Shown: positions 6,313-41,560 of the stretch, in pieces
Numbering within the stretch: position 1 is the stretch's first letter
Layout of the letters: every line of letters begins with the position of its first letter
Source: Psammoneis japonica
Taxonomy: Eukaryota
Direction: 5' to 3'
Assembly (NCBI GenBank): GCA_008632985.1
Contig: QPGO01000061.1
Location: forward strand, 1-64,000
Length of the DNA stretch: 64,000 bases
Position numbers and translations under genes: made by a program
The notes under the pieces: generated by a model
What the model was told of the DNA's origin: nothing
The model's database searches: none
What the model saw: the letters and a program-made list of their open reading frames with translations, nothing else

Positions 6313-7072
6313 CGCATCGGAATGCCAATGGCATTCTCCGTTGCAACTCGTCGCCGCCTGTCGAGGCCGTAGCAGCAGTTGTAATTTTGAAGAAGAGAGC
6401 GACATACACCATTAAAAATGGCTGCTGTCCCTCCTGTGGCTGCCGGAGGTGCCCCCCTGCACCCCCGAAGACGCACCAAGAGAAGTGGATGAGCCAAGGG
6501 GATCATTTGGGAGGAGAGCACACCAACCTCCTCAACCGCTGCCGCACCACGGGACCAGCTCCCACATTAGCCACCACTCTTCTTGAACATGTCATTGACT
6601 CCAGCAACATGGTCCCCAAGGCCTTCTTGGCCTTGGCTCGTCACGGAGCAGGCTGCCAAGTCACGTGTGTGTTCACAGACCCTCTGTGCACATCCGTGAC
6701 CCGGTGGACACGTCCCCTTGGGACAGACGAATCTTCTGTTTTCACAGAGACATTTTACCTAGCAATTTTTTAAACATTCTGGAGTCCCCGACCACACCCT
6801 TTGTTGTTGTGGGACCTCAGGTGGCGCCGATCGCACCTGACATGGCGGCCTCGGAAGGAGTTTTGTTGGACGATCACGACCTCATCCTGCCTCAGACAGA
6901 TGGCACTCCTGACACGGAAACCATCCAGGTGTGCCGGCTGGTCCAGGTGCCGCATGCCTGTCTGCACCTGGTTCTTGGTTGAGACTTGCGCCTCTTCAGG
7001 CATGGCGGGAGCTTGGGAGCGCCATCCAGAACGACGGCCGCATGGGAGACTTTGTCCTCTGCTTGACTGGTT

Positions 7073-8296
7073 GTGTGCCATGCTTGCCATGCATGCTGCT
7101 GCAAACCCAGACCCAGTCCATTGCCCAGGCAACTGCACCATGGCTCTTCCCCCACTCACAGTGGGCACGAATCTCTGCAAGAGCATTGCTGGCGTGCGCT
7201 GCTGCAGGACTTGCCGGCCCTGAACACCGCGGCGGTCGACAACACCAACAGAGCATTGGCCTTTGCCAACATTGTCCAAGCTGATGCCGCGTGGGCCAAA
7301 GCAACAAGGATGGCTGCAGCGGTGGCTGTGGCAGCCCCAAAAACAGCATCGGAGGCATTCCTGCAGACCACGCCAATCTGGCTGCTCCTGTCCAGTGTGC
7401 CCGACGCCGCCGCCCTGCCGGACCTGCACCAATCCTGGGCAAATGGCACAAAGGGCAAGTGGCACCTGTGCTTTGCACGCACCTTGGAGGTCCAAGCACA
7501 AGAGCCTGAAGCAGCATCTTGCATCACTCCTGTTGTTTCAAAGGAGCTCTTTGAGATGGTGTTCCAAGGTGAGGTTGCCCCACATGTGCACCAAGTGAAC
7601 AACTTGGCCACGGGAGTCTCCCCATTCACCTGTGGTTTCTTTGTCAATGGGCAAGGATCCACCATCCAAGTCAGAGCCGAGTGCTGCAATCTTTCCCCAG
7701 TGGGAAACCTCACCCCTGCTGTGGCAGAGCAGGAAGAGTTCCGCGCCAAGGATGCACCCTTGCTGTCCTCAATGCATCACTGTGGGTGCATGCTCCAGGG
7801 CACGAGTTTGGTCCTGGATGTAATTCAAGGGGATGATCACCCCCACACAGTGGCATTCCGTCAATTCTGCCTGGAGGATTGGCGGGATTTAGTCGACTTG
7901 TTGGAGCAGTCTGGCACCCTGCTGGTCAAAGGCAATGTCTTGCCGTGCATCCCGCCATTTGCTCGGCCAACCTGCGAGAGTGGTGGAGAACCCGCAGCCC
8001 ATCACCACCAAGGATGGCGGACGAGGCAGAACTGCAGGCAGCACCAGGCGGGAACCAGGTGCTGCCATCATGAACCCCAGCCCAGTCCAATCCTGGTTGA
8101 TGGCCTTCATGCAAGCCGGTGTCCATCTGGCCATGGTGCGATGATTCGCACCACGCACCACCGACTCTGCAGGAGTGCCATGCAAAACATGCTTGTCCCA
8201 TCACTTGGAGGGCACGTGCTTCGTGAACTGCAAGCATTGTGGGATGCAAGGAACCTGTCCCCAAGGGAAAGAATGGCAATGAGCGCTTTCGTCTGA
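7073..8296 (+). pseudogene. Ngaro gag-like region
   Basis: Long ORF upstream of RT. An alternative frame near 8185-8250 reads CLSHHLEGTCFVNC, resembling the zinc finger of DIRS-type gag. Confidence 0.55.
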
Positions 8297-8780
8297 GAAC
8301 ACCTTCCCAACCCACAAGATGGGGGTGTGCCAGCACCGGCACCCACACCGGCGGCCACCTGCTGAAGACCCGGGCCGGCCAGTCCCAGTGCTGGCCTGCA
8401 GCCTGCCTCTGCCAACTTGCAGCAAGGCCCATGTCAGCAGCACCCCCGCAGTGATGAGCCAGGCAAATTAGCAAAGGAACAGGTCAATCTCTCACACCAG
8501 TTGGGCTGGCCCCAGTTCATCACACACTTGCGTGGGGAACCTTGCATGGTGGAGAATGCAGGTCAGCCACCCCATCCAGCTGCCGAGCCACCACAAAGTC
8601 TCCATGACAACAGAGCACCTGCCCAGTTCACCACCCCCAACTGGATGCCAGCCCAGATCCGGATGACCACCGACCGCGGCAGCCATTCATCCACACGCGA
8701 GCACCTGGGCTTCTTCGAGGCTGACATGGCGGACATGATCCACAAGCGCTGCTGGACTGTCCTGCCACACAACAAGGTCG

Positions 8781-9025
8781 TGACAGAAAATGAAGATGAC
8801 TGGGTGGAAGAAAACAATGGCTCCTTGCTGCTGTCTAAATGGCAGATGAGTCTCCATGCAGAGACCGTTGCAGGAGCCGAAAGACTGGTGTCATGATGTC
8901 GGTGCCACTGTTGCCATTCTTGTGAGCCGTGTGGCTCGAGAGCAAACTACATCGCGCGACGCGCGTGGAACTAAGAGCACACACAATTGTGTGTGACAAA
9001 CTAAAATCTTGTTCAAATCTTGTCA
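8781..9025 (-). repeat. 3' LTR of copia A
   Basis: Direct repeat of 15338-15581, adjacent to the PPT. Confidence 0.95.
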
Positions 9026-12000
9026 CTCCCCAGTTTGCTTGAGGGGTCAACAGCGATAGATTCGAAGTCGGATTGGCTGCAAGCCTCGGGATCGAAGTTC
9101 CAAAACATTAGAGGACGAAGGAGGTTCCAGATTTGGGAGTGACCCCAATGCTTGCTGAGGATGTCAGCCGGGTTGCAGGAGCCTTCGATAAAATGAAACT
9201 CAAGGAAACCGGAGGCAATCGCCTCACGTACACGATGGAACAAGAGGGCGGTGTGTTGCTTGTGTGACTTGGAGTGCGGGATGGTGGCACTGTCCACAAC
9301 CAACTTGTTGTCCCCAAACATGTGACATGTTTCACGAATGCGAACGCCAAGGTGACGCAAAGTGATGCGCAAATCAATGATCTGCTCAACGCATGTCCTT
9401 GTGGCAACAAACTCGGATCCACACGCAGCAGTCTCGACTGTTGCTTGTTTCTTGGAGAACCAATCAGCCGGAAACTCATTGAGGAAATGGAGGATGCCGG
9501 TGACAGAGCGTCCAGTGAGCATGCAATGGAACAAGTTCGCATCAACGCAGTGTGTGGTGGTGATGAACTTGCCAAGCAGCTCGGGTGCGTCTTGCGGGAG
9601 CAGCTCTTCTGCCTCCCACACAAAGATTGAGCCCAGTCACACATGGGCTTGGGGAGGTCCGAACAGTTGGGCTCCTTGGTGCGCACTCGGAGGGTGCCAT
9701 GACGCATCTTGGAGAGGAATCCGCAGATGCATTTGGCACGGAGTGGGTGGCCTTGACGGGGCGCTGCACGGAAGCTGGACAGGGACATGACAGCCGCAGC
9801 AATGTCAATGTGACCCAAAGATGCGGCCCATTGCAGGGATCCAATCAAGGATTGGAGTTGGTGGATGCCATCCGGTTTGAGCAATTTGGAGGTGTCGAGC
9901 TCTGGGTGGTCACCCTTGTCAAGGGGTGAAAGCACATCAGTGCAGGGCTTCTCCCCAAAGAGGCATGCGTGGTTGTCAACCATGCACTCAATGCACTTGC
10001 AGGGAGCAAGGCACAGGGTGCCATCTGGGTCGCGGGTGAAGTTGCAGCCAAGATGGAACTCCAATGGTCCAGTGCCCTTGAGCTTGAACTTGTGCTTCTC
10101 CATGAGGGTGTCTGCAAAAGCCTGGGGGTCCTTCATGGCGAAGGCCAGGTCGTCCACATGCACTGCCACATGTTCGCAGTGGTCACCATTCCTGCGCAGC
10201 CAGATGTCGGGTTCGGCTTTGCATGGAAAGAAGCCTTCGGCACGCAAGCAATCGGCAAAGCGTTCATGCCATCTGAGGCCAGAGCTGTGGAGTCCATACA
10301 AGGCCTTGTGGATGACAAGGATGTGTCCTTCCAGGTCGCCGAACTCGGGGCCTGCCATGATGTACAGTTTCTCCTTGGCCACAGCTTCAAGGCAGGCGTT
10401 CCCAATGTCAGTGGCCCAGGTCATTAGTTCATTGAGTTCAGCCAGGAAGATCATCATTCGCAGGCCACAGAGAGACACCACTCCGGAACAGACACTGTTG
10501 ACGGGCACGTCTGTGAGGTGTCCATTGGCAACAAGCCTTGCTTTGTGCCGTCCGTCATGTTTGACGTCACAGATGAGATGCACCTGGATCTTCTTGTGTC
10601 CCAACGGAGCACTGGAATCCTTGTGGTGTCCGCAGTCATGGAAGACTTCGCACTCATCAAGCTGAGTCATCTCGAGGTCCGTTGCATCTCCCCACTTGTG
10701 GTTGCCGTTGCGCTCATCAAGGGTCATGGCATGCTTGCAGTCCCGTGGCACTTCATGCCCGCACTTGCATTGTGGCGCAGTGCAAAAGGAGCGTAACTTG
10801 GCTTGGTTGGCCATGCGGAATGGCTTCTTCTGACGAAGTGCTGTCTTGCAAAAACATCTCCATCCTTTGGTTTCTAGAAGGCCGTGCTCACGCGCATGGA
10901 TGGCACAGGTGATGGGGTTGTCCTTGGCAATGATGGCAAGAGGTTCGGACGTGATCTCCCCATTCTCCCATTCAAGCATGACGTTGTAGCTTGAGCCTTT
11001 CCATGAGGGATCATGGGGTCGCAATGGTCCTTCGAGCGATGCGATGCGTCAGAACTTCCAGAGAGTGGTGTCCTCGTCTTCTTGCTCAATGTGGTGCATG
11101 ATGTCATTGCAGGCTGGGACTTCCTCGCATTCGTCATTGTTGACAGAGCAGATGAACTTGACCAGTTCAGGATTGCCTCCAATTTTTCAGTCGTGGTCCT
11201 CAACGGCTTTGATGATGTGGGCTCTGTGGTGTTGTCCATCCTCTTGTGGCTTCATGAGGAAGGTGCGTCCCATGACATCTTCGGGGTCAAAGACCGGCAT
11301 TTTGGGCATCCTGATCGCCTCCCCATCTGGTGAATCTGGCAAATCCTTGGAGTCGTGGCGGGATTTAATGACAGGGTCAGCAGATTTCTCATCAGGAGGA
11401 TCAAGACGCAGGTTTGGAGCAGACGGGTCACGGGCGGAGCGCATGTTGTAATGGCAGAGAATCTTCTGAGTGTTGTCAGAAAGAATCTTGAACGTCATTT
11501 GGTGACCAACGTGTTCGGCGATGCCAACGAAGTGACCACGTAATTCACGGGATTCGGATGGCCAGTCAGAATCATCCAGGTGGCAGCACACGGGTTCCCA
11601 CCATTGAAAGCAGAGGAGCGGGCTGATGTCGGGAGCAGAGCCGGACAGCACCTTGGTGGAGGTGCACCAGTGGAGCTTGGCGGACGCCGTGTGGTTGAGC
11701 ACAAAACACATGCACATCAGGGCGAGCAGCCAGGTGCAAGCTGGGGACCCGAAGCGATCCATGACAGTGTCAGCCATGGTCTTCACAGTTTGGCAGCGGT
11801 GTTCAGCGAAATTCTGATGCTGGTGGTGAGGCTCGCTTTGCCAACTGGAGATGAAGATGGCACGAAGGATGCCAAGAACCTTGTTGCTGATCTCAACCTG
11901 AGCACGGTCGCTGATGAGCTTGGACGGGGCACCGCAGTTGCGAATGTTGTCTTTGAGGGTGTTGACAAATTCTTTGTCAGTTTTGGTGCCATGCACGTCA

Positions 12001-14552
12001 GTGATGAGAGATTCTGTGCCGACAAAGAGCTGGGCGCTGGTGCAACCAGAGTCAATGGCAGGGGTGTCAGAGTGGACTGTGTCGGTGGCAACGGGTTCAT
12101 CACGTCGGTGGACATTGAGAGCCGGGTTGGGCGATTTGTGCGCCTTTTTCAGGTGCGTGCTGGCATGTGGGCGCACTGCATCGTGCAATCAAAAGTGCGG
12201 CGGACAGTGTCCTTTGGGAGAAAGCCAAAGCAGGGGCGGAGGGACTCAATGTCGGGATCCTTGGGATTGAGTTTGCGCTCATGGCATTCGCAGAAGAAAA
12301 AATCCGATGTCGGGAGCAGGTGATCATCAAGGACGGAGTCTGCAAGCATGGCATTGTTGATGACATGGGGGTGACGACAGTTGCCGAACTCATCAAAGAG
12401 GTTGGCAGTCGGGTCGTCTTGGAGGTCAGACACGGCATCATGCCATGTCTCATCGTCCATGAACTGGTGGTCAAGGACAGATGGATCCCATGGGTGTCCC
12501 ATTCGGCGTCGGTGTGCGGGCGCATGGCGATGTGTGGAAGGCCGGCTTCAATGTTGATGGGAATGATGCATCCATCAATGGTGGTGATGCGCTGCAGACC
12601 ATTGGGGACCTTGATGGACCGATCGTTAACATCGTGTTTGCACCACTCAAGCTGGCCGCAAGAGTGCATCGTCTTCCCCTTTCCAGTGTGGGCATGCTGG
12701 TGAAGGATGGCAATGGCAGGGCCGCGTTGCATGTGGATGACACCACCGGCAGCGACAATGGGGATGACACCTTGGACGTCAACCTGGCAACCAGTGTGGG
12801 CAATGACACAAACATCATCACCGGCGATGCCACTGTTTGCACCACGATCCACAAGAGCACCTTTGTGAGTTGACTTGTGGGTCAAGGCAGAGTAGACGAC
12901 ATTGTGGTTGTTGACGCGACGGTGTTTATGACCGTTGATCTCAATGTCAGTGTCAGTGGGCTTCGCGTCGGAGCGGGCGGAAGGTGCAGATCCGGACGGT
13001 TTCTTGCCAGAATGGGTGGAAGGGGCCATTCAGGTGCCAGGAGACATTGCAAGTTGCCGAGTGGCAGGGGCTTGCACCTGGTGAGATGAGCCAGAATGGG
13101 GCCAGCATTGGCTGCATCGGCTGTGGCGTCAGATGGTGTGAGGTCCGATGCAAGGTCATGGGTGTTGGCGGACAAGTTGATGTTGCTGTCGCTGCCAAGA
13201 CGGAGGTCGTGTAGGTTGACCATCGTCGAGTCATGGCAGTTGCCGGTGTGGGCATTGTGTGAGCCAAGAATGATGGCCTTGGTGGACTGGGGCAAGGTGT
13301 CCCAAATGCACTGATGGTCCGGCAGAATGCGACGCCATTGTTCCCTGGTGAGGAAGTTGCCACAGGTCTGTGCAGCACAAGCTTGGATGACGTCAACATC
13401 ACTGTCGATGTCGAAGAATGCATCATCGTCAGGGTCGTCGGGAACCAGGTCATGTTCGTAGATGGCATGGCGTGGAGCGCAAGGAGTGGTCTTGGGGGTG
13501 AACGTGCTGTCGTGCTGTGCTGCAGCAGAAAGCAGAATTCCACAGTGCTCTTCGCAAGAGAGACCCTTTCCATTCTGCATGCGGAACTGATCAGCTTGAT
13601 TCTTTGCCAAACGGAGTTCTTCGACAGGATGAACGGTGTTCTCAAGCATGGCACATTTCTGGCCAGCAGAGAAATGGTCCGCACCCGGGACAAGAGCTTT
13701 GTGCTTGCAAAGCTGGTCCTGCCAGTGAAGTGTGAAGGCATGAGTGGATCCTTTCCAGGTGCCATCACTAAGGCGAGCAGTGGTGAGGTGCGTGAGAAGG
13801 GTCGAGGACTCCAGGGATGCACGGGTGGAAGCAAGGGTGCACTTGGAGAGGTCACTACAGACCGCTTGAGCATCAGAGGAGCCGACATGTTGACGAACAA
13901 GTGCCTTGCCTTTGTCATTCTGCAAGATCCGTTCAAACACTGTGAACATTTGCTTCTGTTGTTCATCAAAGAGGGCCTTGTCCTCAGCTGTGGAGGGCTT
14001 GTACGTCGGGTCGAGAATGTGTGCGACATCTTGGGAGCGGGCCTGTGCGATGACGGAGGTGTGCCACGTGTGCCACTGTTTGTCAGACTTGGGAACCGCA
14101 AAGGTGAGTGGGTCACGTTTGATGCCTTGTTTAAAGTCACGTGCGGGATCACTTGGTTTGGGTGGCATCGAGCCAGGAGTGGGAGCAGATGGTGCTGCAC
14201 CCATGGAGAGGGATGCCACATGCTCAGGACTAAGACCACAGTTGGTGAACTCCTCTTGTGTGAATGATTGTGGGTCATTGCTGACATCCGCGCCGCCGCG
14301 CACTTTTGCCATGTGCAGGCTAATCAACGCAGCTGTCTGTGCTTTGTAACCACATGGCAAAGGCATTTGATTGGCGCCGTCGTTGCACACAAGGGCATCC
14401 AATTGCATCGGAGTAAAAGTGAAAAGGTCTTGATGCAAATCGGTTCCATCAATGTTGAGGGCGGAGCGCAATGGATTGTCTGCGGCTTGATTCAGAACAG
14501 TGCCTAGAATGTGCTCGAGGCCATCGATTTGCTGTTGCCTGGTGAGAACCAT
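9013..14552 (-). pseudogene. gag-pol of copia A (frameshifted, hypermutated)
   Basis: gag FKQGIKRD; protease LVDRGANSG; integrase ATDTVHSDTPA, SEPHHQHQN; RT DVKHDGRHKARLVA, KALYGL, AVHVDDL; RNase H NPADILSKHW. Confidence 0.93.
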
Positions 14553-15337
14553 GTTGCAACTGGGTGGGTGTCGGAGCCAGCTGGAAGCAGAGTGTGGGGG
14601 CTTGAAACAACTTGAAACTTGACTTGAATCTTGACTTGATGTCTTGAACTGTCTTAAGAGTCAGAAGCCGCCGGGCCATAACATCCCGTTCACAGTCAAG
14701 TGCCAAGCTTCCTGTCCGGTCCACAGAGTTGTGCCTGCACGTCCGAACCCCCGCAGCTGGCGACGCTTTGGGTTGCTGACAAGCTGGCTAGAGGTGGACA
14801 ACACCTCTGAACCATTCTTATTTTGTGTCGGTTGGATGACCCGATCAGGCCGGCCAAATTTGGCGCTGTGGAGGGACGAACAAACGTGGGAAATCATGCA
14901 CCCTCACCCCAACACAGGCTGCAACCACAAACTGCTTCCTCTCACAGTTGTCCTCATGGACCTTGTAGGACTGTAGAAGACCAGCAATCCGGTGTAGATG
15001 TGAGGCGGTAGACTTGGCGTGCGTGGAGCAGAGCCAGAGTCAGGGATTTATGTCGTGTGCGCGTGGACGCGTGCGGATGCATTGGTGGGATCCGCTGCAA
15101 GGAATCCGGAATCTCGGATGTCTGAGAATTCGGGAATTCCTGGCCAAACAAACATCCGTTGAATAAACATATCCAACGATTGGAGGTGTCGGATAAATCC
15201 AAACGTGTAGATTTAATCCAGCATCCAGCAGTGAAGAAGGTAGACACATGCTTCCACCGCCAACGGTGCGCGTCGTCGAAAATTTCTCGATGACGATGAT
15301 GAATGCTCAGTGGACAACAAAGAGCAAGACTGTAATC

Positions 15338-15581
15338 TGACAGAAAATGAAGACAACTGGGTGGAAGAAAACAATGACTCCTTGCTGCTGTCTAAACAGC
15401 AGATGAGTCTCCGTGCAGAGACCGTTGCAGGAGCCGAAAGACTGGTGTCGTGACATCGGTGCACTGTTGTCATTCTTGTGAGCCGTGTGGCTCGAGAGCA
15501 AACTACATCGCGCAACGCGCATGGAACTGAGAGCACACACAATCATGTGTGACAAACTAAAATCTTGTTCAAATCCTGTCA
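15338..15581 (-). repeat. 5' LTR of copia A
   Basis: Direct repeat of 8781-9025. Confidence 0.95.
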
Positions 15582-16459
15582 GGTCGTGCGATTGCCGCAC
15601 TTGCACATGTCGCCAATGGGCGTGGCACCGCAATGCGACCGCCGTCCGTGCACCATCGTTGACTGCAGTTTTCACGGTCTCAATGACGAGACCGTCAAGC
15701 AAGCCCAACCCGATGCCATGCAGTTCAGGTGTGTGCTTGACCAGTTTCTGCATGAAATGTTCTGTGCAGTCCCAAAGCATGGCCCCGTCCACGTGCTCAA
15801 GTTGGACCTGTCAGACGGTTTCTGCCGGGTGGGCCTCTGGCCCCAAGACATGCCAAAGCCAGGGGTGGCCTTCCCAGTTGGCCTGGAAGAAGAACCCTCA
15901 ATTGCCTCACCCTCATGTCTCCCTGTGGGCTGGATGGAAAGCCCACAGTGTTTTTGCATGGGGACAGAAACCATCATGGATCTGACAAACAATTGCACGC
16001 CTGCCACATGGGATCCACCACCCCGCCCACTGGAGTGTGCTGCGGCGACCCCAGTGCCATCAGACGCACCCTTGCGCATCAATGCACCACCTCCTCCCAG
16101 CAACATTCCCACACAGTGGCTTGTCCACATTCCACCGCCGCAATTGCTGCGCCGCCGTCATCGTCGCTGCACCCGACCGTCACAATCCAGCACACCTCAA
16201 CAAGGTCTGACACCACCTCCTGCACATCAATGATCAAGTCTTCCACCCAAACACACCATCCAACAAACATTGGAGACAAGAAACCGTCTCCCTCAAAAAG
16301 CTTTTCAAAGGTGATGCCTCATGGTCCACCATCAAAGTCATCTTGGGCTGGATCGTCGACACTCTGGCTGGGACAATCCAGCTCCCCGCACATTGGCAAC
16401 AAAGACTGCTCTCCATCCTGGAGGAGATGACACCTCACCGGTGCATCTCCAACAAAACC

Positions 16460-17526
16460 ATGTGGGCAAAGTGCTGGCTCCAGTTTCCATCTGACATCGG
16501 TGTCCAAGATCCTCTCCTCACCAGTGTCCGTGACAAAATCCCAGTGCTCTGAGTGTTTGCCCATTGCCTTGGGGATGGATGCCTCAGCCACAGTGGCAAC
16601 CCAATCACAGCTGCACACATTCATGATGAAGTCCTTCATGTCGCAAAGACGTTCACCAAATTGGGGGCCCCAGACCCGCGCCCAACCACCCACGGCACCA
16701 TGGACCCACAACTGTCCCGCTTGTGCAGCGCGCACATGAAAGATGATCCACCCCCCAACCACATCAAGCCCCTGCCAATGCAAGCAGTGCACCACGCACA
16801 GGCTCCAATCAATGCACATTCCACTCTGCTGGACAATGCCATCATTGCATGTCGTGGATCAGACTTTTCTACCTGCTGCATCCTGGCAAGCACTGCAAAG
16901 CTAAGGACAACAACCCCCTTGTGCTCACCAATGTCAAACTGCTCATTGGCCAATGGGCCCTTGACCACCTCTCCTGCCCACTTCACCAACTGTTCCTGGC
17001 CACCCACAGCAGCATCACATTTGATGTGCAGAAAAATCATGAATGCAGCAAAGTCATTGGACACGCCCAAAGCTTGCACTCCAAAGCATGCCTCATCCTT
17101 GCCATCACACGCCGAGTCCATCACCTGCAATCCCATGGGGCCAACGCCTGCACCCCACTGTGTGCAGTTTGTGTTGGTGCACATTGGACACATGTCACCA
17201 GCCGTGCCATTGCAAAAACACTGCAAGTCTCAGCCGTGGTGCTGCCGCACCTTGGCTTCTTGCCCAAGGATGTCACGTCTCGCAGCCTCTGTGCTGGTGG
17301 CGCTGTGGCCTTGCTGTGTGCCAAAGTCAACACGGGCATCACACGCCTGGTTGGACACTGGAAATCTGATGCCATGTTCCGGTGCTTGCACGCACAAGCC
17401 CTCCCATTGATTGCCGGGCCATCCATGAAAATTCCACACCATGGCAATTTTACCTTGCTGCCCGGCACAGAAGTCCCGCCAGTCGTGCAAAATCTCATTC
17501 ATCAAGCCAAGGCCACCAACAACTGA
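16460..17526 (+). pseudogene. Ngaro tyrosine recombinase (inactivated)
   Basis: DPPPNHIKP, FYLLHPGKH (FFLLRPGEY), QKN, SRSLCAGGA (SLRAGGA), GHWKSDAMFRCL (GRWxSDxMxRYL; catalytic Tyr changed to Cys). Confidence 0.88.
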
Positions 17527-18018
17527 CGGGTCCTTGGCAAACCCGCCCTCAGCTCCGCTTCTTGCCCACCCCTTTTTCCTTGTCGGCACTCCAAGAGTGG
17601 TGGCAGGAGGCAGTTCCGGTGCCAGGGACTCACAGCAAAACCCCCAGCAAAGCGCTGACACCACCAGCCACCGCCTCCCAACTGTGGCAGAATGCAGCTC
17701 CCAGCAGTGTTGGTGGTGAATGGCCATTTTAGCAGCAAAGGGGCAAGGACAGATGCACCCAACACCAACCGCAGCCTTGAACGGATCAGAGTGCCAACGG
17801 CATTCTCTGTTGCAACTTGTTGCCACCTGTCAAGGCTGCAGCAGCAGTTGTAATTTTGACCCACCACTCCCGCCCAGGCCGCCTCTGTGGGGCGGTTCTG
17901 GTGCTGGGGAGTCACGGCAAAAACCCCAGCAAAGCGCTGACACCACCAGCCACCGCCTCCCAACTGCTGTGGAGCACAGTCCCCAGCAGTGTTGGTGGCA
18001 AATGGCCAGCTCTTTTGA

Positions 18019-18425
18019 GGGGGGTCATCTCTGCGTTTGTCCTGGAATTGCCGTGGCATTTGAACAAGGATGTTTGCAGTGCTCATTTTTGAATGCAAAA
18101 ACTGTTTACATTCACTCCCAATTGTGCATGAAAATGAGAACATCAGGTGCACAGGCACAGCGATCAAAGCACGATGATGACAGCAATGTCAACACACTTC
18201 AGCTCAAAAACGCAGTGGTCCATCCTCAAACATTTGATGCACATGTGACCTTTGACACACAATGAACACAAAACAAATGAGAGTTGACAGACAGGCCACC
18301 TCCATCACAGACTTGTGTGGCTTGATGTTTTCACAACTGTGAAGCACGGTGAAAATCAGGGGAAATCATGCAAATCACGAGCTGTTTGGTCAAATTGGAG
18401 CTAAAAAAGTGGCAAATGACCCCCC
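18019..18425. mobile_element. ~410-bp MITE with GGGGGGTCAT/ATGACCCCCC TIRs, copy 1
   Basis: Terminal inverted repeats; flanks ttga/tcaa; homologous over its full length to 58083-58478. Confidence 0.8.
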
Positions 18426-20281
18426 TCAAGGTGGCAGCAAAATGTCACATCTTTCTACAGAGGATCACACAGGGCTGCACAAATTAGATGCCAGAGGTTG
18501 TGTGGAAAAAGTGCAAAATTACCGCACTCATCTGCAACCAAAGCCAGTGATGAAATTTCCATTTGTCACACATTGAGTCCTGCAAGAATTCTTGAACAGG
18601 ATTTTCCCAGGACTCATGCCAAAACTGAGCTTGGTTTGGTTTTGCTGTGAGATTCCCCAAAAATTCCCTGGGATTGCCACCTTTTGCCATGATTTTCCAC
18701 GGGAAGAATGATTTCCCGGGGAATCACCACGAATCGTGCTTCATCACATGCATGGTGCACCTGTGAATAAAAAATTGCATGTTGGGAGTTCCCCGTGCTT
18801 CCCTCTCACACATTTCTGCACCTTCCACATGCCGGGATGCAGGAGCCAGACAACAATCAACCAACCACAACAAAAATGGGCAACACGCCATGGTGCACTT
18901 GCACCCCATTTATGATGGCTTTTGTCTGTCAATCATGACACCGTTCAATGCATTTGATGACATCGATTGAATGGGATCTACAGAATGAAACACAAGATGA
19001 AATGTGGTTGCTCATGTGCAGAATGCCAGTGCAATTGAGTTGTCAGTCGTCAGTTGTTCTTTTGTCATGCAGTCCAAAATGTGAGCCACAAGGTGCACAG
19101 CAAAGGCCAAGGCAAAAGCAGAGCCATGCATGGCTGACAATGACAACATGTCAGATTGAACAGTCTCCTTCATTCTTCCAATTGACACATCTTGTGTGCA
19201 GAACAAAGGGGATCGTTCAGATCACTCTTGTGTTGCAGTCACAAATGCAAGCCATGAGGCATCTGGAGTGAAGGACAAGGCAAAGTTGGAACTTCACATC
19301 ACTGACAAAAACATGGTGGATTGATTGATGATGTCATTCTTCCCTTTGACCCATCTCACATGCAGAATGCAGTGGATCTTTTTTTCCTTCTTGTGGTGTG
19401 TGGCCCCAAATGCAAACAACATGTGCTCTTGAGCAAAGGCTGGGGCACAAATGGAGCCGCATGTGAGCATTGTCAACACGCATGATTTAATGGCAAAGTT
19501 CATTTTTCCCTTGCTCTGCCATGAGGGGCCACTTTGTGTCAATTTGTCAATGCATCCATCATGGTCGTCACCCGGCTGAATGAAAATGAGAGAAAGGCAC
19601 ACCGGCCTGACCCAAATCAAGTGGGAATTGCTGCAATGCACTCATTTTTTGTTCCCCTCCCTGAGCCCTTTTGGTCATTCCTTCCCACCAAATTGCCCCC
19701 TCATTCCCTGGGAATTCCCCAAAAGGGTGAGGCAATTCCCCCTTGCCCTTGCCATTTTGGGGAATCCCCAAATGGGCAAAACCAAACTAAGAAACTGAGC
19801 TTGACTTGCAGACAATGGATGATGATGATGCCCCTTCACAAGACCCAGGAAATCATGCATCGTCAAAAGACCATCAAGAGTGGATCTGGGTTGATGCAGT
19901 CAGACTCAGTTTGGTTTCACCCATTTGGGGATTCCTCAAAATGGCCAAGGCAAGGGGGAGTTGCCTTGCCCTTTTGGGGAAAACCCAGGAAATGAGGGCA
20001 CTTTTGTGGGAAGGAACGCCTGAAAGGGCTCAGGGGAGGGGAACAAAAACGAATGGCATGCAGCAATGTGCCGCAATCACAGTCAGGCAGGTGAGCTTTT
20101 ATCCTCATGACGACCAAGCAAGTGATGCAATGTGGCAACATGCTGATGAGACATGGTGCACGACACATTGACACAAAGCAGCCCCTTGTGACAGAGCAAG
20201 GAAAGAAGAAACTTTGCCATTGAATCTGCCATGTCAATGTTGCTCATGCACGGTTCTGTTTTTGCCTTGTCCTTTGCTCTG

Positions 20282-20527
20282 TGACAGGATTTGAACAAGA
20301 TTTTAGTTTGTCACACACAATCATGTGTGCTCTTAGTTCCACGCGCGCTGTGCGACGCAGTTTGCTTTTGAGCCACATGGCTCACAAGAACAACAACAGC
20401 AGCACCGACATCAACGACACCAGTCTTTTGGCTCCTGTGACGGTCTCTGCATGGAGACTCATCTGCTGTTTAGACAGCAGCAAGGAGTCATTGTTTTCTT
20501 CCACCCAGTCATCTTCATTTTCTGTCA
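20282..20527 (+). repeat. 5' LTR of copia B
   Basis: TGACAG...CTGTCA; direct repeat of 26865-27110. Confidence 0.95.
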
Positions 20528-21360
20528 GATTGACACTCTTGCTCATTCTCATCCATTGAGCGGTCATCACTGTCATCAAGAAAAATTTGACTGCACGCAC
20601 CGTTGGTGGTGGAAGCACACACCTGCCTTCTTTGCTGCTGGATGCTGGATTAAATCCATGTGTTTGGATTCATCCAACACCTCCCATCATTGGACATGTT
20701 TGTTCAACGGATGTTTGTTTGGTCAGGAATTCCCAAATTTTCAGACATCCAAGATTCCGGATTCCCTGCAGCAGATTCTACCCTGGTTGGCAGACAGATC
20801 AATCCATCCGCTTGCGTTCACGCGCACACGACATGATCCCTTGACTCTGGCACTGTTCCACGCATGCCAAGTCTGCTGCCTCATGTCTGCACTGGATTGC
20901 TGGTCTTCCACAGTTCTGCAAGGTCCACGAGAATGACTGTGAGAGGAAGCAGTTCATGATCACAGCCTGCATTGGGGCGAGGGTGCATTTCCCACACAAT
21001 TTGTTCGTCCCTCCACAGTGCCAAATTTGGCCAGCCTGATCAGGTTGTCCAACCAATGTAAAACAAGAATGGTTTGGAGGTGTTGTCCACCTCCAGATGG
21101 CTTGTCAGCAGGGTTTTTTAACCCGTTGCTCCGCTCTCAGGCAACCCAAAGTGCCAGCAGCTGCGGGTTCGGACGTGCCGGCACAACTCCATGGACCGGA
21201 CAGGAAGCTCAGCATTTAACTACGAATGGGACAGCAAAACGCTGCGGCTTCTGATTTGCAAGACAGTTCAAGACTTCAAGTCAAGACTCAAGTCAAGTTT
21301 TAAGTCATCTCAGGCTCACCCTCCGACTCTGGCCAGTCCCGACACCCACCTGGTTGCAAC

Positions 21361-24300
21361 ATGGTTCTCACCAGGCAGCAACAGATCAATGGCCTCAAGC
21401 ACATTCTAGGCACTGTTCTCCATCAAGCCGCAGACAGTCCATTGCACTCTGCCCTCAACATTGACAGAACTGATTTGCATCAGGATCTCTTCACTTTTGC
21501 TCCAATGCAAATGGGTTCCCTGGTTTGTGACGATGGCACCAATCAAATGCCCTCACCACGTGGTTACAAAGCACAGATGACTGCGCTGATTAGTCTGTGC
21601 ATGGCAAAGCAATGACCCTCACTTGTTCACATGTGAGGATTTCACTGACTGTCATCACAGTCCTGAGCATGTGGCGTCCCTCTCCATGGGCACAGCACCA
21701 TCTGCTCCCACTCCTGGCTTGTTGCCACCCAAAACACATGACCCCAGGTGTGACTTTAAACAAGGCATCAAATGTGACCCACTTGCCTTCGTGACTCTCT
21801 GGTTCAACAAACAGTGGCACACATGGCACACCTCCATCATTGCACAGGCCTGCTCCCAGGACGTCGACCGCATTCTTGATCCAATGTACAAGCTCTCTAC
21901 AGCTGAGGACAAGGCCCTGTTTGACAAACAACAGAAGTGCATGTTCACTGTGTTCGAATGCATCTTGCAGAATGACAAAGGCAAGGCAACTATTTGTGAA
22001 CATGTTGGCTCCTCTGATGCTCAAGCAGTGCATCGTGACCTGTCCAAGTGCGCCCTTGCATCTGCTCATGCATCCCTGGAGTCCTCAACCCTTCTCATGC
22101 ACCTCACCACTGCTTGCCTCAGTGATGGCACCTGGAAGGGATCCACTCATGCCTTCATGCTTCACTGGCAGGACCAGCTTTGCAAGTGTGAAGCTCTTGT
22201 CCTGGGTGCGTGGACCACTTCTCTGCTGGCCAGAAACGTGTCATGCTTGAGAACGTCGTTCATCCCATCGAAGAACTCTGTTGGCAAAGAATCAGGCCAA
22301 TCAGTTCCGCACGCAGAATGGCAGCAGCCTGTCTTACGAGCAGCACTGTGGACTCCTGCTTTCTGCAGCGGCACAGTGCAACAGTGCGTTCACCCCCAAG
22401 ACAGCTCCTCGCACTCCACGCCGCGCCATCTACGAACATGACCTGGCCCCCGACGATCCTGATGATGAATTGTTCTTCAACATCAACAGTGATGTTAATG
22501 TCATCCAAGCCCATGCTGTGCAGACTCGTGGCAACTCCCTCACCAGGGAACAATGGCATTGCATTCTGCCGGACCATCAGCGCACTTGGGACACCTTGCC
22601 TCAGTCCACCAAGGCCATCATTCTTGGCTCGCGCACTGCCCACACTGGCAACTGCCATGACTTGATGGCAGTCAACCTGCATGACCTTTGTCTTGGCAGC
22701 AACAGCAATGTCAACTTGTCCGCCAAAGCTCATGATCTTGCATCAGCCCTTGCACCATCCGATGCTGCAGCCGATGCAGCCAATGCTGACCCCTTTCTGG
22801 CTCATCTCACCAGGCGCAAGCCTTTGCCACCCGGCAACTTGCAACATCTCCTGGCACCTGAATGGCCCCCTTCCACCCGCTCTGGCAAGAAACCCCCCAG
22901 ATCTGTGCCTTCCATCCACTCCAACAAGAAATCCAACAGATCTGTGTCTTTCCACACTTGAGCTCAATGGTCATAAACACCATCGTGACAATGACCACAA
23001 TGTTGTCTGCTCTGCCTTGACCCACAAATCGACTTGCAAAGGCACTCTTGTGGATCGTGGTGCAAACGGTGGTGTTGCCGGTGATGATGTTTGTGCAATT
23101 GCCCACACTGGTTGCCAGGTTGACATTCAAGGTGTCAATGATCACCAGCTTGTCGACATTCCCATCGTCACAGCCGGCGGTGTCATCCACATGCAGCACG
23201 GACCTGTCATTGCCATTCTTCACCAGCACGCCTGCACTGGAAAAGAGAAGACCATGCACTTGCGGCCAGCTTGAGTGGTGGAAACACGATGTCAATGATT
23301 GGTCCATCAAGGTCCCCAACAGTCTGCAGCGCATCACCACCATTGATGGATGCATCATTCCCATCGACATCAAAGCCGGCCTTCTGCACATCGCCATGCA
23401 CCCGTGCACTGATGCTGAATGGGACAGCCTGCCGCAGGTCGTTCTCACTGGTGATGACACATGGGATCCATCTGTCCTTGACCACCAGTTCATCAATGAT
23501 GAGCAGTGGCATGATGCCATGTCTGACCTCCAAGACGACACAACTGCCAACCTCTTTGATGAGTTTGGCAACTGTCACCACCAACATGTCGTCAACAATG
23601 CCATGCTCACAGACTCCGTCCTTGATGACCACCTGTGCTCCCGACGTCTGATTTTTTCCACAAATGCCATGAACACGAGATCAATCCAAAAGATCCCAAT
23701 TTTGAGTCTCTGCACCCTTGTTTTGGCTTTCTCTCAAAAGACACTGTTTGCCATGCTTTTGATTGCATGATGCAGTGCGCCCGCATGCCAGCCAGCATGC
23801 ACCTGAAAAAGGTGCACAAGTCACCCAACCTTGCTCTCAATGTCCACCAACATGATGAGTCCATTGCCACTGACACGGTGCACTCCGACACCCCTGCCAT
23901 TGACTCTGGATGCACCGGCGCCCAGCTCTTTGTCGGCACAGAATCTCTTGTCATGGATGTGTGCAGAACCAAAACTGACAAGGAATTCATCAACATGCTT
24001 GAAGACAACATTTGCAATTGTGGTGCCCCGTCCAAGCTCATCAGCAACCGTGCTCAAGTTGAGATCAGCAACAAGGTTCTTGGCATCCTTTGTGCCCTCT
24101 TCATCTCGAGTTGGCAAAGCAAGCTTCACCAACAGCATCAGAATTTTTCTGAACACCACCACCAAACTGTGAAGACCATGGCCAACACCATCATGGATTG
24201 CTTCGGGTCTCCGGCTCACACCTGGCTGCTTGCCCTGATGTGCATGTGCTTTGTGCTCAACCACATGGCATCTGCCAACCTCCACTGGCATGCCCTCACC

Positions 24301-26877
24301 AAGGTGCTTTCTGGCTCTGCTCCCAACATCAACCCACTCCTTCATTTTCAATGGTGGGAACCCGTGTGCTGTCACCTGGATGATTCCGACTGGCCGTCCG
24401 AATCAAGTGAGTTACATGGTTGCTTTGTTGGCATTGCCAAACATGTGGGTCATCAGATGACATTCAAGATTCTTTCTGACAACACTCAGAAGATTCTCCA
24501 CCGCTCAAAAGTGCGTTCCACCCGTGATCCGTCTGCTCCAAACCTGTGTCTTGATCCTCCTGACAACATGTCTGCCAAACCCATCATCAAATCCCTTCAC
24601 GACTCTGGGGATTCACCGGATTCACCAGATGGGGAGGCAATCAGGATGCCCAAAATGCCAGTTTTTGACCCCAAGGATGTCATTTGATGCACCTTCCTCA
24701 TGAAGCCACAGGAGGACGGACAACACCACAGAGCTCGTGTCGTCAAAGCCTTTGAGGACAATGACTGGAAAATTGGAGACAACCCTGAACCAGTCAAGTT
24801 CATTTGCTTTGTCAACAATGATGGGTGTGAGGAAGTCCCAGCCCACAATGACATCATGCACCACATCAAGCAAGAAGACGAGAACACTGCCCTCTGGAAG
24901 TTCCAGTGCATCATCTCACATGAAGGACCATTGCAACCCCATGATCCCTCTTGGAAAGGCTCAAGTTACAACGTCATGCTTGAGTGGGACAATGGGGAGA
25001 TCCCGTCCAAACCCCATGCCATCATTGCCAAGGATGATCCCATCACCTGTGCCATCTGTGCACATGAGCATGGCCTCATTGAAACCGAAGGATGATGGAG
25101 ATGTTTTTGCAAGACAGCTCTGCATCAGAAGAAGCCATTCTGCATGGCCAGTCAAGCCAAGTTACACTCCTTTTGCACTGCACCACGGTGCAAGCACGGG
25201 TGTGAAGTGCCCCAGGACTGCAAGCATGCCTTGGCCCTTGATGAGTGCAAAAGCAACCGCAAGTGGGGAGATGCAATGGACCTCAAGATGACTCAGCTTG
25301 ATGAGTGCAAGGTCTTCCACGACTGCAGACATTGCAAGGATTCCAGCGCTCCATCAGGACACAAGAAGATCCAGGTGCATCTCATCTGCGATGTCAAACA
25401 TGACAGACGGCACAAAGCAAGGCTTGTTGCCAATGGACACCTCACAGACGTGCCTGTCAAAACAGTGTCTGTTCAACAAACTAGAGACTTGGGCCACCAA
25501 CATTGGGAATGCATGTCTCAAAGCTGCAACCAAGGAGAAACTGTGCATCACAGCAGGCCCCAAGTTTGGCAAGCTGGAAGGACACATCCTTGTCATCCAC
25601 AAGGCCTTGTGCGGACTCCACAGCTCTGGCCTCAGATGGCATGAACGCTTTGCCGATTGCTTGCGTGCAGAAAGTTTCTTCCTGTGCAAAGCCGAACCCA
25701 ACATCTGGCTGCACAGGAATGGTGACCACTGCAAATGCATGGCAGTGCATGTGGACAACCTGGCCTTTGCCATGAAGGACCCTCAGGCTTTTGCAGACAC
25801 TCTCATGGAGAAACACAAGTTCAAGCTCAAGGGCATTGGACCATTGGAGTTCCATCTTGGTTGCAACTTCACCCATGATCCAGATGGCACCCTGTGCCTT
25901 GCTCCCCACAAGCACATTGAGCGCATGGTTGACAACTGCACATGCCTCTTTGGGGAGAAGCCCTGCACTGACATGCTTTCACCCCTTGACAAGGGTGACC
26001 ACCCTGAGCTTGACACCTCCGAGTTGCTCAAACCGGAGGGCATCCACCAATTTCAATCCTTGATTGGTTCCCTGCAATGGGCCGCATCTCTTGGTTGCAT
26101 TGACATTGCTGTGGCTGTCATGTCCCTGTCTGGCTTCCATGCAGTGCCCCACCAAGGCCACCCAGACCGTGCCAAATGCATCTGCGGATTCCCCTCTAAG
26201 ATGCATCATGGTGCCCTCCAAGTGTGCACCAAGGAGCCCGACTGTTTGGACCTTCCCAAGCCTGTGTGTGACTGGGCCCAATCTGTGTGTGGGGAGGTGG
26301 AAGAGCTGCTCCCGCAAGATGCACCCAAGCCACTTGGCAAGTTTGTCACCACAACACACTGCATTGATGCACACTTGTTCCATTGCATGCTTGCATCCTC
26401 CATTTCCTCAGTGAGTTTCCAGCTGATTGGTTCTCTGAGAAACAAGCAACAGTCGAGACTGCTGTGTGTGGATCCGAGCTTGTTGCCGCAAGGACATGCG
26501 TTGAGCATGTCATTGATCCACGTGTCCCTTTGTGTCACATTGGTGTCCCCATTTGTGAAACATGTCACATGTTTGGGGACAACAAGTTGGTTGTGGACAG
26601 TGCTGCCATCCCACACTCCAAGTTACACAAGCGGCACACTGCCCTCTTGTTCCATTGTGTGTGTGAGGCAATTGCCTCCAGTTTCCTCAAGTTTCATTTC
26701 ATCAAAGGCTCCCACAACCCAGCTGACATCCTCAGCAAGCATTGGGGCTGCTCCCAAGTCTGGAACCTCTTTTGTCCTCTAATGTTTTGGAACTTCAATC
26801 CCAAGGCTTTCAACCAATCTGACCTTGAATCTGTTGCTGTTGACCCCTCAAGCAAACTGGGGAGTGGCAGGATTTGA
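21361..26877 (+). pseudogene. gag-pol of copia B (stops, frameshifts, heavily hypermutated)
   Basis: Starts MVLTRQQQI as in copy A; LVDRGANGG, ATDTVHSDTPA, DVKHDRRHKARLVA, AVHVDNL, NPADILSKHW. Confidence 0.93.
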
Positions 26878-27110
26878 ACAAGATTTTAGTTTGTCACGCA
26901 CAATTGTGTGTGCTCTTAGTTCCGTGTGCGCCATGCGATGCAGTTTGCTTTCAAGCCACATGGCTCACAAGAACAATGACAGCAGTGCCTGCATCAACGA
27001 CACCAGTCTTTAAGCTCCTGTGATGGTCTCTGTGCAGAGACTCATCTGCTGTCCAGACAGCAGCAAGGAGTCATTGTTTTCTTCCACCCAGTCATCTTCA
27101 TTTTCTGTCA
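26865..27110 (+). repeat. 3' LTR of copia B
   Basis: Follows the PPT; followed by the TSD. Confidence 0.95.
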
Positions 27111-27837
27111 CTCTGGAGCCCTTGTGGTTTGCATTTGTGACCATGCAACTCAAGAAAGAATGCATGACACACTGCATTCTGCAAATGAGATGGAGCAAAG
27201 GAAAGAATGAGCATGACTGCTCAATCTGCCACATTTTTGTTGGCCTTGTGAGGCTCTGCTTTTGCCTTGGCCTTAGCTCTGGATGCATCACAGTTTGCAG
27301 AATTGATGACAGCATGGCCACAGACAATCCCTTGAGAGCGGTCTCTTGATCCTTGCTGCTGCCCTCAACATGGGTCACTTTTCCAACATGTGGTCCTCCC
27401 AAGACAGGGGTGCACAATGTGGTGTCGACTTTGACAACACCTTCCGTAACTTCAAAAGCGACGATGATTTGACAATGCTGGGAAACGCAGGGACAATGTC
27501 AGGCAAAAAAGAAAAAATCCATTCTGAGAGTCGATCAAGTGCTGAGCTGAAACCACCGCTGCACAAAAAAGCACTTCTTGCGCCGCATGGCATGTCCGTC
27601 TGCAATCCGCTGGTTCATCCATGAACCTGGTGAATGGCAGACCCTGCGTTTTAGTTATTCCTGTCTGCCTGTCCTCATGTTTCGGCGATTGTCAATGGCG
27701 ATTGTAGCGGGAGGAAGTAAAGATACCTCGCGTACAATGATCCTGAACACCGCAATGCGTTAATGATGCTAAGAACAGGCCTTTTTACTGAAAGAAGATA
27801 AAAGCTGGGTTCTTTTTGTTTTGAGAGAGCGTGTAGC

Positions 27838-29052: not shown

Positions 29053-29269
29053 AAACCTTCTTTGTGGTCCCAAGGCATTACATATTATATTGACTATAAG
29101 AGCTGGAAGCCTCAACAAAATCCTCAAGTGTCACAGAAGTTTAACGCCCTACAGTAATCATTCCAACATCTTCTCAGTGGTGAAAAAAAGCTACGACAGA
29201 ACAAGATACGAAAATGTATCGGTATTGATTCTGACAAAATGTATGTAGCCTAACCATTGCTGCTTTATG

Positions 29270-29295
29270 CTCTCTCTCTCTCTCTCTCTCTCTCT
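29270..29295. repeat. (CT)n microsatellite
   Basis: About 13 CT units; only about 3 at the paralogous site near 3490. Confidence 0.9.
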
Positions 29296-41338: not shown

Positions 41339-41560
41339 TCTCCCAAGAAACTTTGACTTTGTCATCAATGAAAGTTTCAGCAGGCTGGGGATTTGTTGCT
41401 GCAGCCAGGTGAGGAGCTTGGGCAATCATCTCTTCACACACATTGGCACATCTCCCAAGAAACTTTGACTTTGTCATTAATTGAAGTTTCAGCAGGCTGG
41501 GGATTTGTTGCTTCAGCCAGGTGAAGGGCTTGGACAATCATCTCTTCACACACATTGGTG
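41339..41560. repeat. ~112-bp tandem duplication within a degenerate unknown ORF
   Basis: Two copies of atctcccaagaaactttgactttgtc...tcttcacacacattgg. Confidence 0.85.

Follow-up and report, generated by a model that had tools for sequence, protein, structure and literature searches.

Evidence for TpA-specific hypermutation of transposon-derived DNA, with sparing of adjacent genes, in the diatom Psammoneis japonica

The window considered here, i.e. positions 1 to 64,000 of the forward strand of contig QPGO01000061.1 (assembly GCA_008632985.1) of the diatom Psammoneis japonica, contains a nest of transposon-derived DNA, including two copies of a Copia-type long terminal repeat (LTR) retrotransposon, in which the dinucleotide TpA is almost absent. 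We take this to be the product of a fixed, DNA-level and post-integration hypermutation of TpA to TpG or CpA, which strikes transposon-derived DNA and spares the adjacent genes, and assign a probability of roughly 0.78 to this interpretation. An original prediction, made from the letters of the window, had proposed such a process and knew of no described mechanism for it; on the latter point it was superseded by a report of TpA to TpG/CpA hypermutation in Bigelowiella natans, as set out in the accessible text of a preprint (bioRxiv 10.64898/2026.01.13.699255). The kind of process is thus already described, and the window represents a new and saturated case of a barely described phenomenon.

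TpA depletion across the window

Counts of TA bear out the loss of TpA with a concomitant rise of TpG/CpA that had been predicted for 6430-27620: this interval contains 106 TA against 1163 +/- 26 in 200 mononucleotide shuffles. A per-kb scan of observed/expected ratios (O/E) agrees, giving a TpA O/E of 0.00-0.26 over 7001-27000 together with a mean TpG/CpA O/E of 1.53-1.94, as against 0.47-0.75 and 1.10-1.36, respectively, in the gene blocks. The predicted limits were too narrow, as the signature extends to six blocks that sum to 45,119 bp, i.e. 70% of the window (45 kb of 64 kb), with 18,881 bp falling to the gene blocks. Within the main TpA-free block (6413..27652, no strand assigned), which is formed by nested transposon-derived DNA, there are 107 TA against 1166 +/- 29 in shuffles, besides 2174 TG, 2313 CA and 711 CG dinucleotides. 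The longest TA-free runs measure 1,439 bp (22974-24413) and 1,312 bp.

The share of TA among dinucleotides is 0.43% in the TpA-free blocks as against 4.2% in the gene blocks, an approximately tenfold difference, and CG stands at 2.3% versus 4.8%. TG and CA each amount to 10.9% versus 7.5%, i.e. TG+CA is up by 6.8 points and TA+CG down by 6.3. AA/TT is nearly constant (7.2% versus 8.0%), ApT is mildly lower (5.6% versus 7.0%), and TC/GA makes up 6.2% versus 7.1%, indicating that TpC is not depleted. The expected concentration of A:T to G:C change at TpA is accordingly seen in the tenfold loss of TA beside nearly unchanged AA/TT. The block edges at 6413, 27652, 32637, 45231, 49031 and 55430 are steps, at which the spacing of TA switches from hundreds of bases to 10-50 within one interval; with the TpA O/E of 0.5-0.75 retained by the gene blocks, these edges uphold the predicted restriction of the signature to transposon-derived blocks. 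The density of TAA+TAG drops from 18.2 per kb to 3.2 per kb in the TpA-free blocks, and because of this depletion 55 stop-to-stop open reading frames (ORFs) of at least 150 aa crowd all frames of 6000-28000.

The Copia copies

Copy A (8781..15581, minus strand) and copy B (20282..27110, plus strand) are mutually inverted, are 85.6% identical, and have their ORFs in the order gag, integrase-like and reverse transcriptase (RT), those of copy A being nearly Tyr-free. Both match the Pfam family RVT_2 (E 2.1e-22 for copy A and 4.1e-10 for copy B), have an integrase region upstream of the RT, and are bounded by LTRs of the TG...CA form (TGACAGG...CTGTCA) with a 5-bp target-site duplication, which are the defining features of Ty1/Copia elements; Pfam rve gave no match in their mutated integrase ORFs. 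The LTRs of copy A, 244-245 nt in length, lie at 15338..15581 (5' LTR) and 8781..9025 (3' LTR) on the minus strand, next to the duplications CGACC at 15582-15586 and 8776-8780. Those of copy B lie at 20282-20527 and 26865-27110 on the plus strand, next to CTCTG at 20277-20281 and 27111-27115. In contigs built at k=31 from a public sequencing run, X1, the summed word depth is in the thousands over both copies as against ~50-200 over unique sequence, and the Copia family is therefore highly repeated.

Polarity of the change

The motifs quoted in the original prediction, in which conserved Tyr is replaced by His or Cys, are all present: HVDD stands for the YVDD of the RT, DIGNAC for DIGNAY, and the integrase-like ORF of copy B (23629-24687) has 0% Tyr. 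The ORFs of copy A show 0.3-0.6% Tyr, 3.0-5.6% Cys and 4.7-6.9% His, and the five Copia ORFs of the window taken together 0-0.6%, 3.0-5.9% and 4.7-7.4%. These values could have been native to the family, as the prediction itself had recognized. The RT region has 1,550 relatives, and among the best 120 of them (top identity 65%) the median is 4.35% for Tyr (minimum 2.2%), 1.2% for Cys and 3.6% for His, i.e. the relatives keep their Tyr. A set of 12 outgroup Copia proteins served to define conserved columns, in which 75% or more of them have Tyr. Of 23 such columns in copy A, Tyr is kept in 2 and reads Cys in 9, His in 5 and another residue in 7; of 16 in copy B, it is kept in none and reads Cys in 8, His in 2 and another residue in 6. 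Both ORFs are out of frame towards the C-terminus, which enlarges the class of other residues. The codons at the converted positions are TGY and CAY. Most other residues fare much better: copy A keeps 31/37 of the outgroup-conserved G and 23/26 of the conserved P, and after Tyr the next most changed conserved residue is Thr (6/19). A second, unrelated family, represented by the ORF at 7067-8293, behaves likewise, with 0% Tyr here as opposed to 1.6-2.9% in 11 aligned relatives.

The same polarity is apparent at the DNA level, where 80 of 267 confirmed metagenome loci of the family served as baseline. These loci keep their TpA (median O/E 0.745, minimum 0.31) and have a GC content of 0.48, as against 0.53-0.58 in the affected DNA; none of them contains a 1-kb window with the hypermutation signature, a result to be read with the peptide patterns used for their recovery in mind, which may miss mutated copies. 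Per 10,000 tetranucleotides of the sense strand, the coding part of copies A and B has lost 483 TA and 156 CG relative to the 80 loci (638 in all), and has gained 271 TG and 349 CA (620). These totals, and the survival ratios given below, are used since a per-context subtraction of the gene-block or family baseline by tetranucleotide failed to balance, the flanks being mutated too.

These figures bear directly on the idea that the composition is native or selected, either through families that avoid TA or through CpG decay alone as the source of the TG/CA excess. TpA is mildly rare in most genomes, the gene blocks of the window (O/E 0.5-0.75) included, and CpG decay does contribute; yet TpA and Tyr are at normal levels in the relatives, the change extends to non-coding LTRs and to all six frames, the catalytic YVDD motif is destroyed, and the loss of CpG (156) covers only about a quarter of the TG/CA gain (620). 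Native composition or selection is thus refuted by the relatives, the LTRs, the loss of YVDD and the CpG balance, and we give it next to no credence.

Some individual relatives are of interest in their own right. L004, L007, L049 and L017, which come from other organisms, combine a CpG O/E of 0.16-0.24 with a TpA O/E of ~0.5 and are cases of ordinary methylation decay without TpA erasure. L059, which has the lowest TpA O/E among the 80 loci (0.31) and a TG/CA value of 1.42, may be a mild case of TpA erasure. P0001, a protein from a 1.86-Mb ENA contig and likewise a Copia relative, contains the RT region twice in one 1,070-aa product, pointing to a nested or tandem element, and its Tyr is intact. 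For one Copia relative the nearest Atlas cluster has one member on record, which is assigned to Bacillariophyta.

Timing and strand

Both LTRs of an element derive from a single template and are identical at integration. In copy A the LTR pair has 16 mismatches in 246 columns, comprising 4 TG/CA sites (8 mismatches), 1 TA/CA, 4 CG/TG and 3 other, and in copy B there are 27 mismatches, with 7 TG/CA sites, 1 TA/CA, 6 CpG sites changed in one LTR only and 6 other. The number of TG/CA sites expected from double CpG decay is 0.22 in copy A (P 8.5e-5 for the 4 seen) and 1.5 in copy B (P 9e-4 for the 7 seen), and the target-site duplications of both copies are intact. The TG/CA differences therefore imply that the same ancestral TA was struck independently in each LTR, on either strand and after insertion, and such independent changes exclude RNA or cDNA editing as the main source.

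That source, namely integration of a copy edited beforehand, either as double-stranded transposon RNA by ADAR-like A-to-I editing or as cDNA in the course of reverse transcription, might otherwise have been attractive, given that the recognizable victims are retroelements and that ADAR-type enzymes favour a 5' U according to the accessible text of the B. natans preprint (bioRxiv 10.64898/2026.01.13.699255). It does not account for LTRs of one template that carry TG against CA, for both strands being equally affected, for the non-LTR flank beyond the target-site duplications, which is equally TpA-free, or for the differences between recent genomic duplicates, 2/5 of which lie at TpA. For the bulk of the events it is ruled out by the LTR pairs, and we consider it extremely improbable overall.

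Comparison of the two copies with each other points to post-integration change as well, albeit less cleanly. They differ by 808 transitions and 154 transversions, and the codon pairs from which ancestral TA had been deduced in the original prediction (TAC/TGC, ATG/ACA and CAT/TGC) are confirmed. Its claim that the sister copies resolve the same site differently is real as far as the 136 TG/CA discordant sites go, which are split 68:68 and show no strand-coordinated bursts by a runs test (z 0.17); by our estimate ~80 of the 136 may be attributable to double CpG decay, and the discordance is therefore weaker as an argument, leaving the Tyr codons and the LTR pairs as the clean evidence. Thus, the LTR pairs, the 68:68 split and the TA depletion together support the predicted action on DNA, on both strands and specifically at TpA. 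Copy A keeps TAC where copy B has TGC, which indicates that each copy arrived with its TA steps intact, and hence that source copies must escape.

As a rough indication of the rate, erasure of RTAY sites (R, purine; Y, pyrimidine) has reached 91-99%, in elements with a difference between the LTRs at 1.2-2.4% of the remaining sites. The segment 552-1900, a recent duplicate with 11 TA and 25 CG, shows 5 substitutions, 2 of which fall at TA (P 0.0026) and 2 at CG, and the process seems to be still active on the remaining targets.

Flanking preference and the separate decay of CpG

Survival of TA, expressed relative to the family baseline for each flanking context, is lowest in ATAC/GTAT (0.009), ATAT (0.017) and ATAG/CTAT (0.024), followed by GTAC (0.065) and ATAA/TTAT (0.10). 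It is higher in CTAG (0.15), CTAC/GTAG (0.16) and GTAA/TTAC (0.17), and highest in CTAA/TTAG (0.31) and TTAA (0.34). The order is identical when the gene blocks serve as baseline, and the residual TA of copies A and B mostly follows a pyrimidine. There is a purine-TA-pyrimidine preference: RTAY is erased and YTAR partly survives.

The predicted decay of CpG to TpG/CpA also occurs, as a separate and slower process. Its flank profile is uncorrelated with that of TA loss (Spearman -0.2 and -0.01, n = 10), and the young copies have a CpG O/E of 0.4-0.8 at a stage when their TpA O/E is already 0.05-0.1, with older blocks reaching a CpG O/E of 0.04-0.2. The different flank profile and the slower loss of CpG therefore argue for two processes in one territory.

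Targeting

The name given to the process in the original prediction, a reverse form of repeat-induced point mutation (RIP), does not stand as far as a trigger by repeats is concerned. The window contains three copies of a gene pair, encoding a GT18-family glycosyltransferase and a lectin/HYR protein, at 1999-6143, 27802-32080 and 46290-48491; two of these are ~99% identical over their first 1.3 kb, and all three keep a TpA O/E of ~0.5-0.75. Conversely, the stretch 16003-17336 has unique-level depth in run X1 and is TpA-free. The sparing of the paralogues and the erasure of a stretch at single-copy depth thus indicate that the process is not repeat-induced and that its targeting follows transposon identity or chromatin state. 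No leakage of TpA erasure into the neighbouring gene was seen at 1991-2240, where 13 clustered differences between paralogues are not TpA-specific.

Read-level support

The possibility that the signature arises from miscalling of modified bases on signal-based long reads (N6-methyladenine read as G, 5-methylcytosine (5mC) as T), the true DNA having TA and CG, can be judged against run X1. Parts of the sequence are found in three public runs from one sample and one study, for which the library type is not on record. Errors between A and G and between C and T at methylated motifs are known for nanopore basecalling, and the homopolymer indels beside the N at position 551 look like long-read errors. 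Contigs of X1 nevertheless match 15555-16458 and 16457-17671 with 0 differences (2,117 bp with 4 TA) at a word depth of 48-54, which noisy long reads would not yield. Contigs of the repeat family show transition differences with no general reversion to TA; miscalling on two strands would mix TG and CA at one site and so break contigs, and the LTR pairs and sister copies bear fixed, differing outcomes. The same signature was moreover measured by Illumina reads in B. natans, according to the accessible text on that organism. Base-calling artefact is therefore unlikely, and we allow it only a slim chance. The check for TA at the erased sites in reads of another platform, which the prediction had called for, hence came out in its favour in so far as X1 reproduces the TpA-free sequence, with the proviso that X1 may be the source of the assembly. 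No RNA run is listed among the three, and run X2 covers the gene block and lacks cover over most transposon bins; neither point is interpretable for expression.

Possible mechanisms

In the process we favour, an A:T to G:C transition occurs on either strand of the palindromic TpA step and reaches saturation within the lifetime of a young element, and the process serves as an irreversible inactivator of silenced insertions. The adenine in TpA might be deaminated enzymatically to hypoxanthine, which would then be replicated as G, and the putative enzyme may be recruited by the transposon-silencing machinery and not by sequence duplication. Adenine deamination is the most likely chemistry, with just under half of our belief behind it. 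ADAT/TadA enzymes edit a Y-U-A context in the tRNA anticodon loop.

A different chemistry would need no deaminase: TpA in silenced transposons might carry a base modification that is itself mutagenic, such as 5-hydroxymethyluracil (5hmU) or 5-formyluracil (5fU), placed by a TET/JBP-type enzyme, or N6-methyladenine. Such a mark would do at TpA what 5mC decay does at CpG, with TA again turned into CA or TG on both strands. For a mark laid on both strands of a symmetric step, equal and independent hits on either strand would be expected, as seen here (68:68 and an absence of runs). The territory also coincides with that of CpG decay, itself left by another epigenetic mark. Mutations caused by 5hmU or 5fU are mainly T to C. 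TpC is not depleted in the TpA-free blocks, as the TC/GA share given above indicates, whereas 5hmU, which marks the silenced transposons of dinoflagellates, prefers both TA and TC in Crypthecodinium cohnii, and the accessible part of that account does not report the 5hmU-rich dinoflagellate genomes as TpA-free (PMC11572971). On balance we deem such a modification an unlikely source, if one that still deserves some weight beside hypermutation by an enzyme acting on TpA directly.

Several points weigh against TpA-specific hypermutation of transposon-derived DNA as set out here, or qualify it. Only the Copia copies and one weak RT match are recognizably transposon-derived, and of the 45 kb of TpA-free sequence, ~24 kb could be assigned to no family. 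The events are deduced from fixed differences, with no de novo event observed, and sequence alone cannot separate A from T as the attacked base. Since a purine precedes TA here, as opposed to the Y-U-A context of the tRNA editors, simple moonlighting of ADAT2/3 is not favoured. As X1 may be the assembly's own source, its agreement constitutes a platform check and not an independent replication. The contig end at 1-551 suggests an unpolished long-read assembly: when compared with its duplicate at 25774-26324 it shows seven one-base indels of homopolymer type and a 3-bp gap beside the single N at 551. Finally, the B. natans precedent is an unreviewed preprint.

A broader proposal would be that TpA erasure is a widespread, heterochromatin-coupled genome defence of protists, present in at least two distant lineages, in which a natural adenine-editing or thymine-modifying enzyme acts on double-stranded chromosomal DNA with an R-TA-Y preference, and which, more than methylation by itself, is the main killer of new retrotransposon copies in this genome. 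We put this forward tentatively, as a possibility that we are inclined to doubt more than to accept.

Relationship to known systems

The closest parallel is the TpA to TpG/CpA hypermutation in B. natans described by Mettrop et al. (bioRxiv 10.64898/2026.01.13.699255), an unreviewed preprint of which the accessible text provides the following. In mutation-accumulation lines 231/302 nuclear mutations fell in two viral inserts, and 230/231 of the insert mutations changed A to G or T to C, in every case at TpA. The process ran at ~6e-7 per site per generation, ~1000-fold over background, and did so in some lines only. RT and DDE domains were over-represented among TpA-poor coding sequences, and an ADAT2-like deaminase was proposed by the authors (bioRxiv 10.64898/2026.01.13.699255). 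Both cases share action on both strands, change from A:T to G:C only, confinement to foreign or selfish DNA and a normal rest of the genome. When the 1-kb cluster cut-offs used for B. natans (TpA-depleted, CpA/TpG-enriched) are applied here, 43/64 windows pass. The hallmarks of the B. natans process recur in the present DNA: change is almost solely A to G or T to C, as judged by fixed differences; TpA becomes TpG or CpA depending on the strand, as seen in the LTR pairs and the 68:68 split; and it is confined to selfish DNA, only a part of the affected DNA being recognizably transposon-derived.

The differences are equally instructive. Events in B. natans were seen in real time, in an insert of a nucleocytoplasmic large DNA virus with 3.3% TpA, a level well short of saturation, and a virophage insert with 9.2% TpA (not depleted), whereas here LTR retrotransposons are saturated at 0.4-0.6% TpA and 70% of the window is affected. 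CpG decay overlaps TpA erasure here, while the accessible text on B. natans contains 0 occurrences of 'CpG'; that text likewise gives no flank preference and lacks the word 'trinucleotide', Figure 2B being captioned 'specific mutation motif', and has 0 occurrences of diatom or stramenopile (bioRxiv 10.64898/2026.01.13.699255). Beyond B. natans, the present case provides proof from the LTRs that the change follows integration, a rule for the flanks, evidence that TpA loss is independent of CpG decay, and the finding that duplicated genes are spared. A literature search, in which subscription journals were thinly covered, found no TpA-specific hypermutation besides that preprint, and none for diatoms.

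The original prediction had also held that fungal RIP, 5mC decay and one-strand RNA editing do not explain the pattern, and the direction of change, the CpG balance and the LTR pairs all agree with this. The process is reminiscent of RIP in being an irreversible mutational defence through transitions in a dinucleotide context, with a sharp-edged compositional scar in transposons. In ascomycete RIP, however, C changes to T mostly at CpA, creating TpA, whereas here TpA is destroyed and CpA/TpG created; RIP makes AT-rich DNA, whereas the process in the window raises GC. RIP is also triggered by duplication and strikes duplicated genes, a trigger contradicted here by three spared blocks of paralogues up to ~99% identical. 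Thus, both in direction and in trigger the window departs from fungal RIP. Deamination of 5mC resembles the present case in that CpG goes to TpG/CpA on both strands in the TpA-free blocks, but it cannot remove TpA, is slower here, and has another flank profile. As a full cause of the TG/CA excess it fails, both on the balance of 156 against 620 and on an LTR discordance above the CpG expectation. The animal APOBEC3/ADAR systems likewise hypermutate retroelements with a nearest-neighbour preference, ADAR favouring a 5' U (bioRxiv 10.64898/2026.01.13.699255, accessible text); they act on cDNA or RNA, before integration and on one strand (G to A, or A to G), in contrast to the post-integration and strand-symmetric change seen here, and the one-strand change and identical LTRs expected of such pre-integration editing are absent. 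As for dinoflagellate 5hmU, the likeness lies in a transposon-linked feature of protist DNA with a preference for TA, in that case for TA and TC; the accessible account presents it as an epigenetic mark and does not report it as a mutational signature (PMC11572971).

Significance

In textbooks, mutational genome defence is limited to fungal RIP and animal APOBEC/ADAR. A DNA-level, TpA-specific A:T to G:C process had a single earlier sighting, in a preprint, in viral inserts and at low saturation; the window displays the end state, with retrotransposon families stripped of TA, of Tyr codons and of TAA/TAG stops soon after insertion. The substrate motif, the residual YTAR sites and a genome in which the activity would necessarily be strong offer handles for an enzyme search, and a naturally occurring enzyme able to change A to G in chromosomal DNA, if it exists, would be relevant to base editing. 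There are also practical implications for annotators of protist genomes, to whom the signature matters, as TpA-free blocks inflate spurious ORFs and defeat homology-based transposon annotation, most of them having no Pfam match to a mobile element.

Other sequences of the window

The extent to which the affected DNA can be classified bears on the prediction's statement that all retroelements are affected. This is so for the Copia copies; otherwise there is one weak RVT_1 match (E 1.3e-3), and among 119 stop-to-stop ORFs scanned in the other TpA-free blocks no further Pfam mobile-element family was found. The RVT_1 match belongs to an RT-like fragment at 15583-16230, within an older TpA-free sequence (15587..20276, plus strand) into which copies A and B are inserted. 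In several X1 contigs the two flanks of copy B are joined (20279 to 27116-27122) with 2-8 other letters at the joint in place of the element; the simplest reading is that these contigs derive from further members of the older repeat family in which copy B is not inserted. Further sub-threshold matches in the other TpA-free blocks, namely to MASE2 (E 9.2e-4; ORF 51245-51865 in block 49031-55430, 19.6 bits versus the 25-bit cut-off) and Clathrin_bdg (E 6.4e-3), are probably due to chance.

A recombinase with its Tyr replaced by Cys had also been proposed. The string GHWKSDAMFRCLH does occur in the plus-strand translation of the same older sequence at 16747-17523; Pfam gave no match for it, and we tentatively liken it to the catalytic C-terminus of tyrosine recombinases of the DIRS/Crypton type, with Tyr changed to Cys. 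The translation itself reads VGHWKSDAMFRCLH. On the other side of copy A, the TpA-free sequence at 6413..8775 (plus strand) contains the 409-aa Tyr-free ORF 7067-8293, which belongs to an unnamed family of ~700-aa proteins (105 relatives at E <= 1e-3, the best with 50% identity). A Pfam scan of 10 relatives found no domain in any of them, and the ORF may encode an undescribed transposon protein.

The remaining five TpA-free blocks are smaller than the main one. The block at 1..1900 (plus strand; 12 TA in 1,900 bp) duplicates the 3' part of copy B together with its flank, and forms part of a segmental duplication. Those at 32637..45231 (TA 50 versus 844 +/- 23 shuffled) and 49031..55430 (TA 19 versus 438 +/- 16 shuffled) are unclassified and CpG-poor, the former strongly so (CpG O/E 0.05-0.45) and without a Pfam match. 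Two short unclassified blocks lie at 57038..58454 (3 TA in 1,417 bp) and 60528..62094 (5 TA in 1,567 bp); like the preceding two, they have no strand assigned. A strong GC skew is seen inside the TpA-free blocks (+0.21 at 12001-14000, -0.23 at 16001-18000 and -0.34 at 44001-46000), and in copies A and B it tracks the orientation of the element, the sense strand having CA at 582 and TG at 457 concordant sites.

The spared gene block at 27653..32636 (no strand assigned), with the GT18-family glycosyltransferase and L-type-lectin/HYR ORFs, provides an internal control: its TA count of 226, versus 370 shuffled, is an ordinary mild depletion. It is paralogous with 1901-6412 and 46290-48491. Two host ORFs of the window have no near-identical protein in a collection of 5.8 billion proteins (0 and 1 unnamed matches), and no rRNA or tRNA was found in the 64 kb. 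The segmental duplication mentioned above has a period of ~25.8 kb (1-6100 and 25774-32100) and comprises the 3' end of copy B, its flank and the GT18 and L-type-lectin/HYR pair, of which the third and more diverged copy lies at 46290-48491. Its divergence is 0.4% in the transposon part, ~2% in the adjoining gene part and 8-30% in the lectin part, i.e. the genes have diverged faster than the dead transposon beside them, which possibly reflects diversifying selection, gene conversion or a mosaic assembly.

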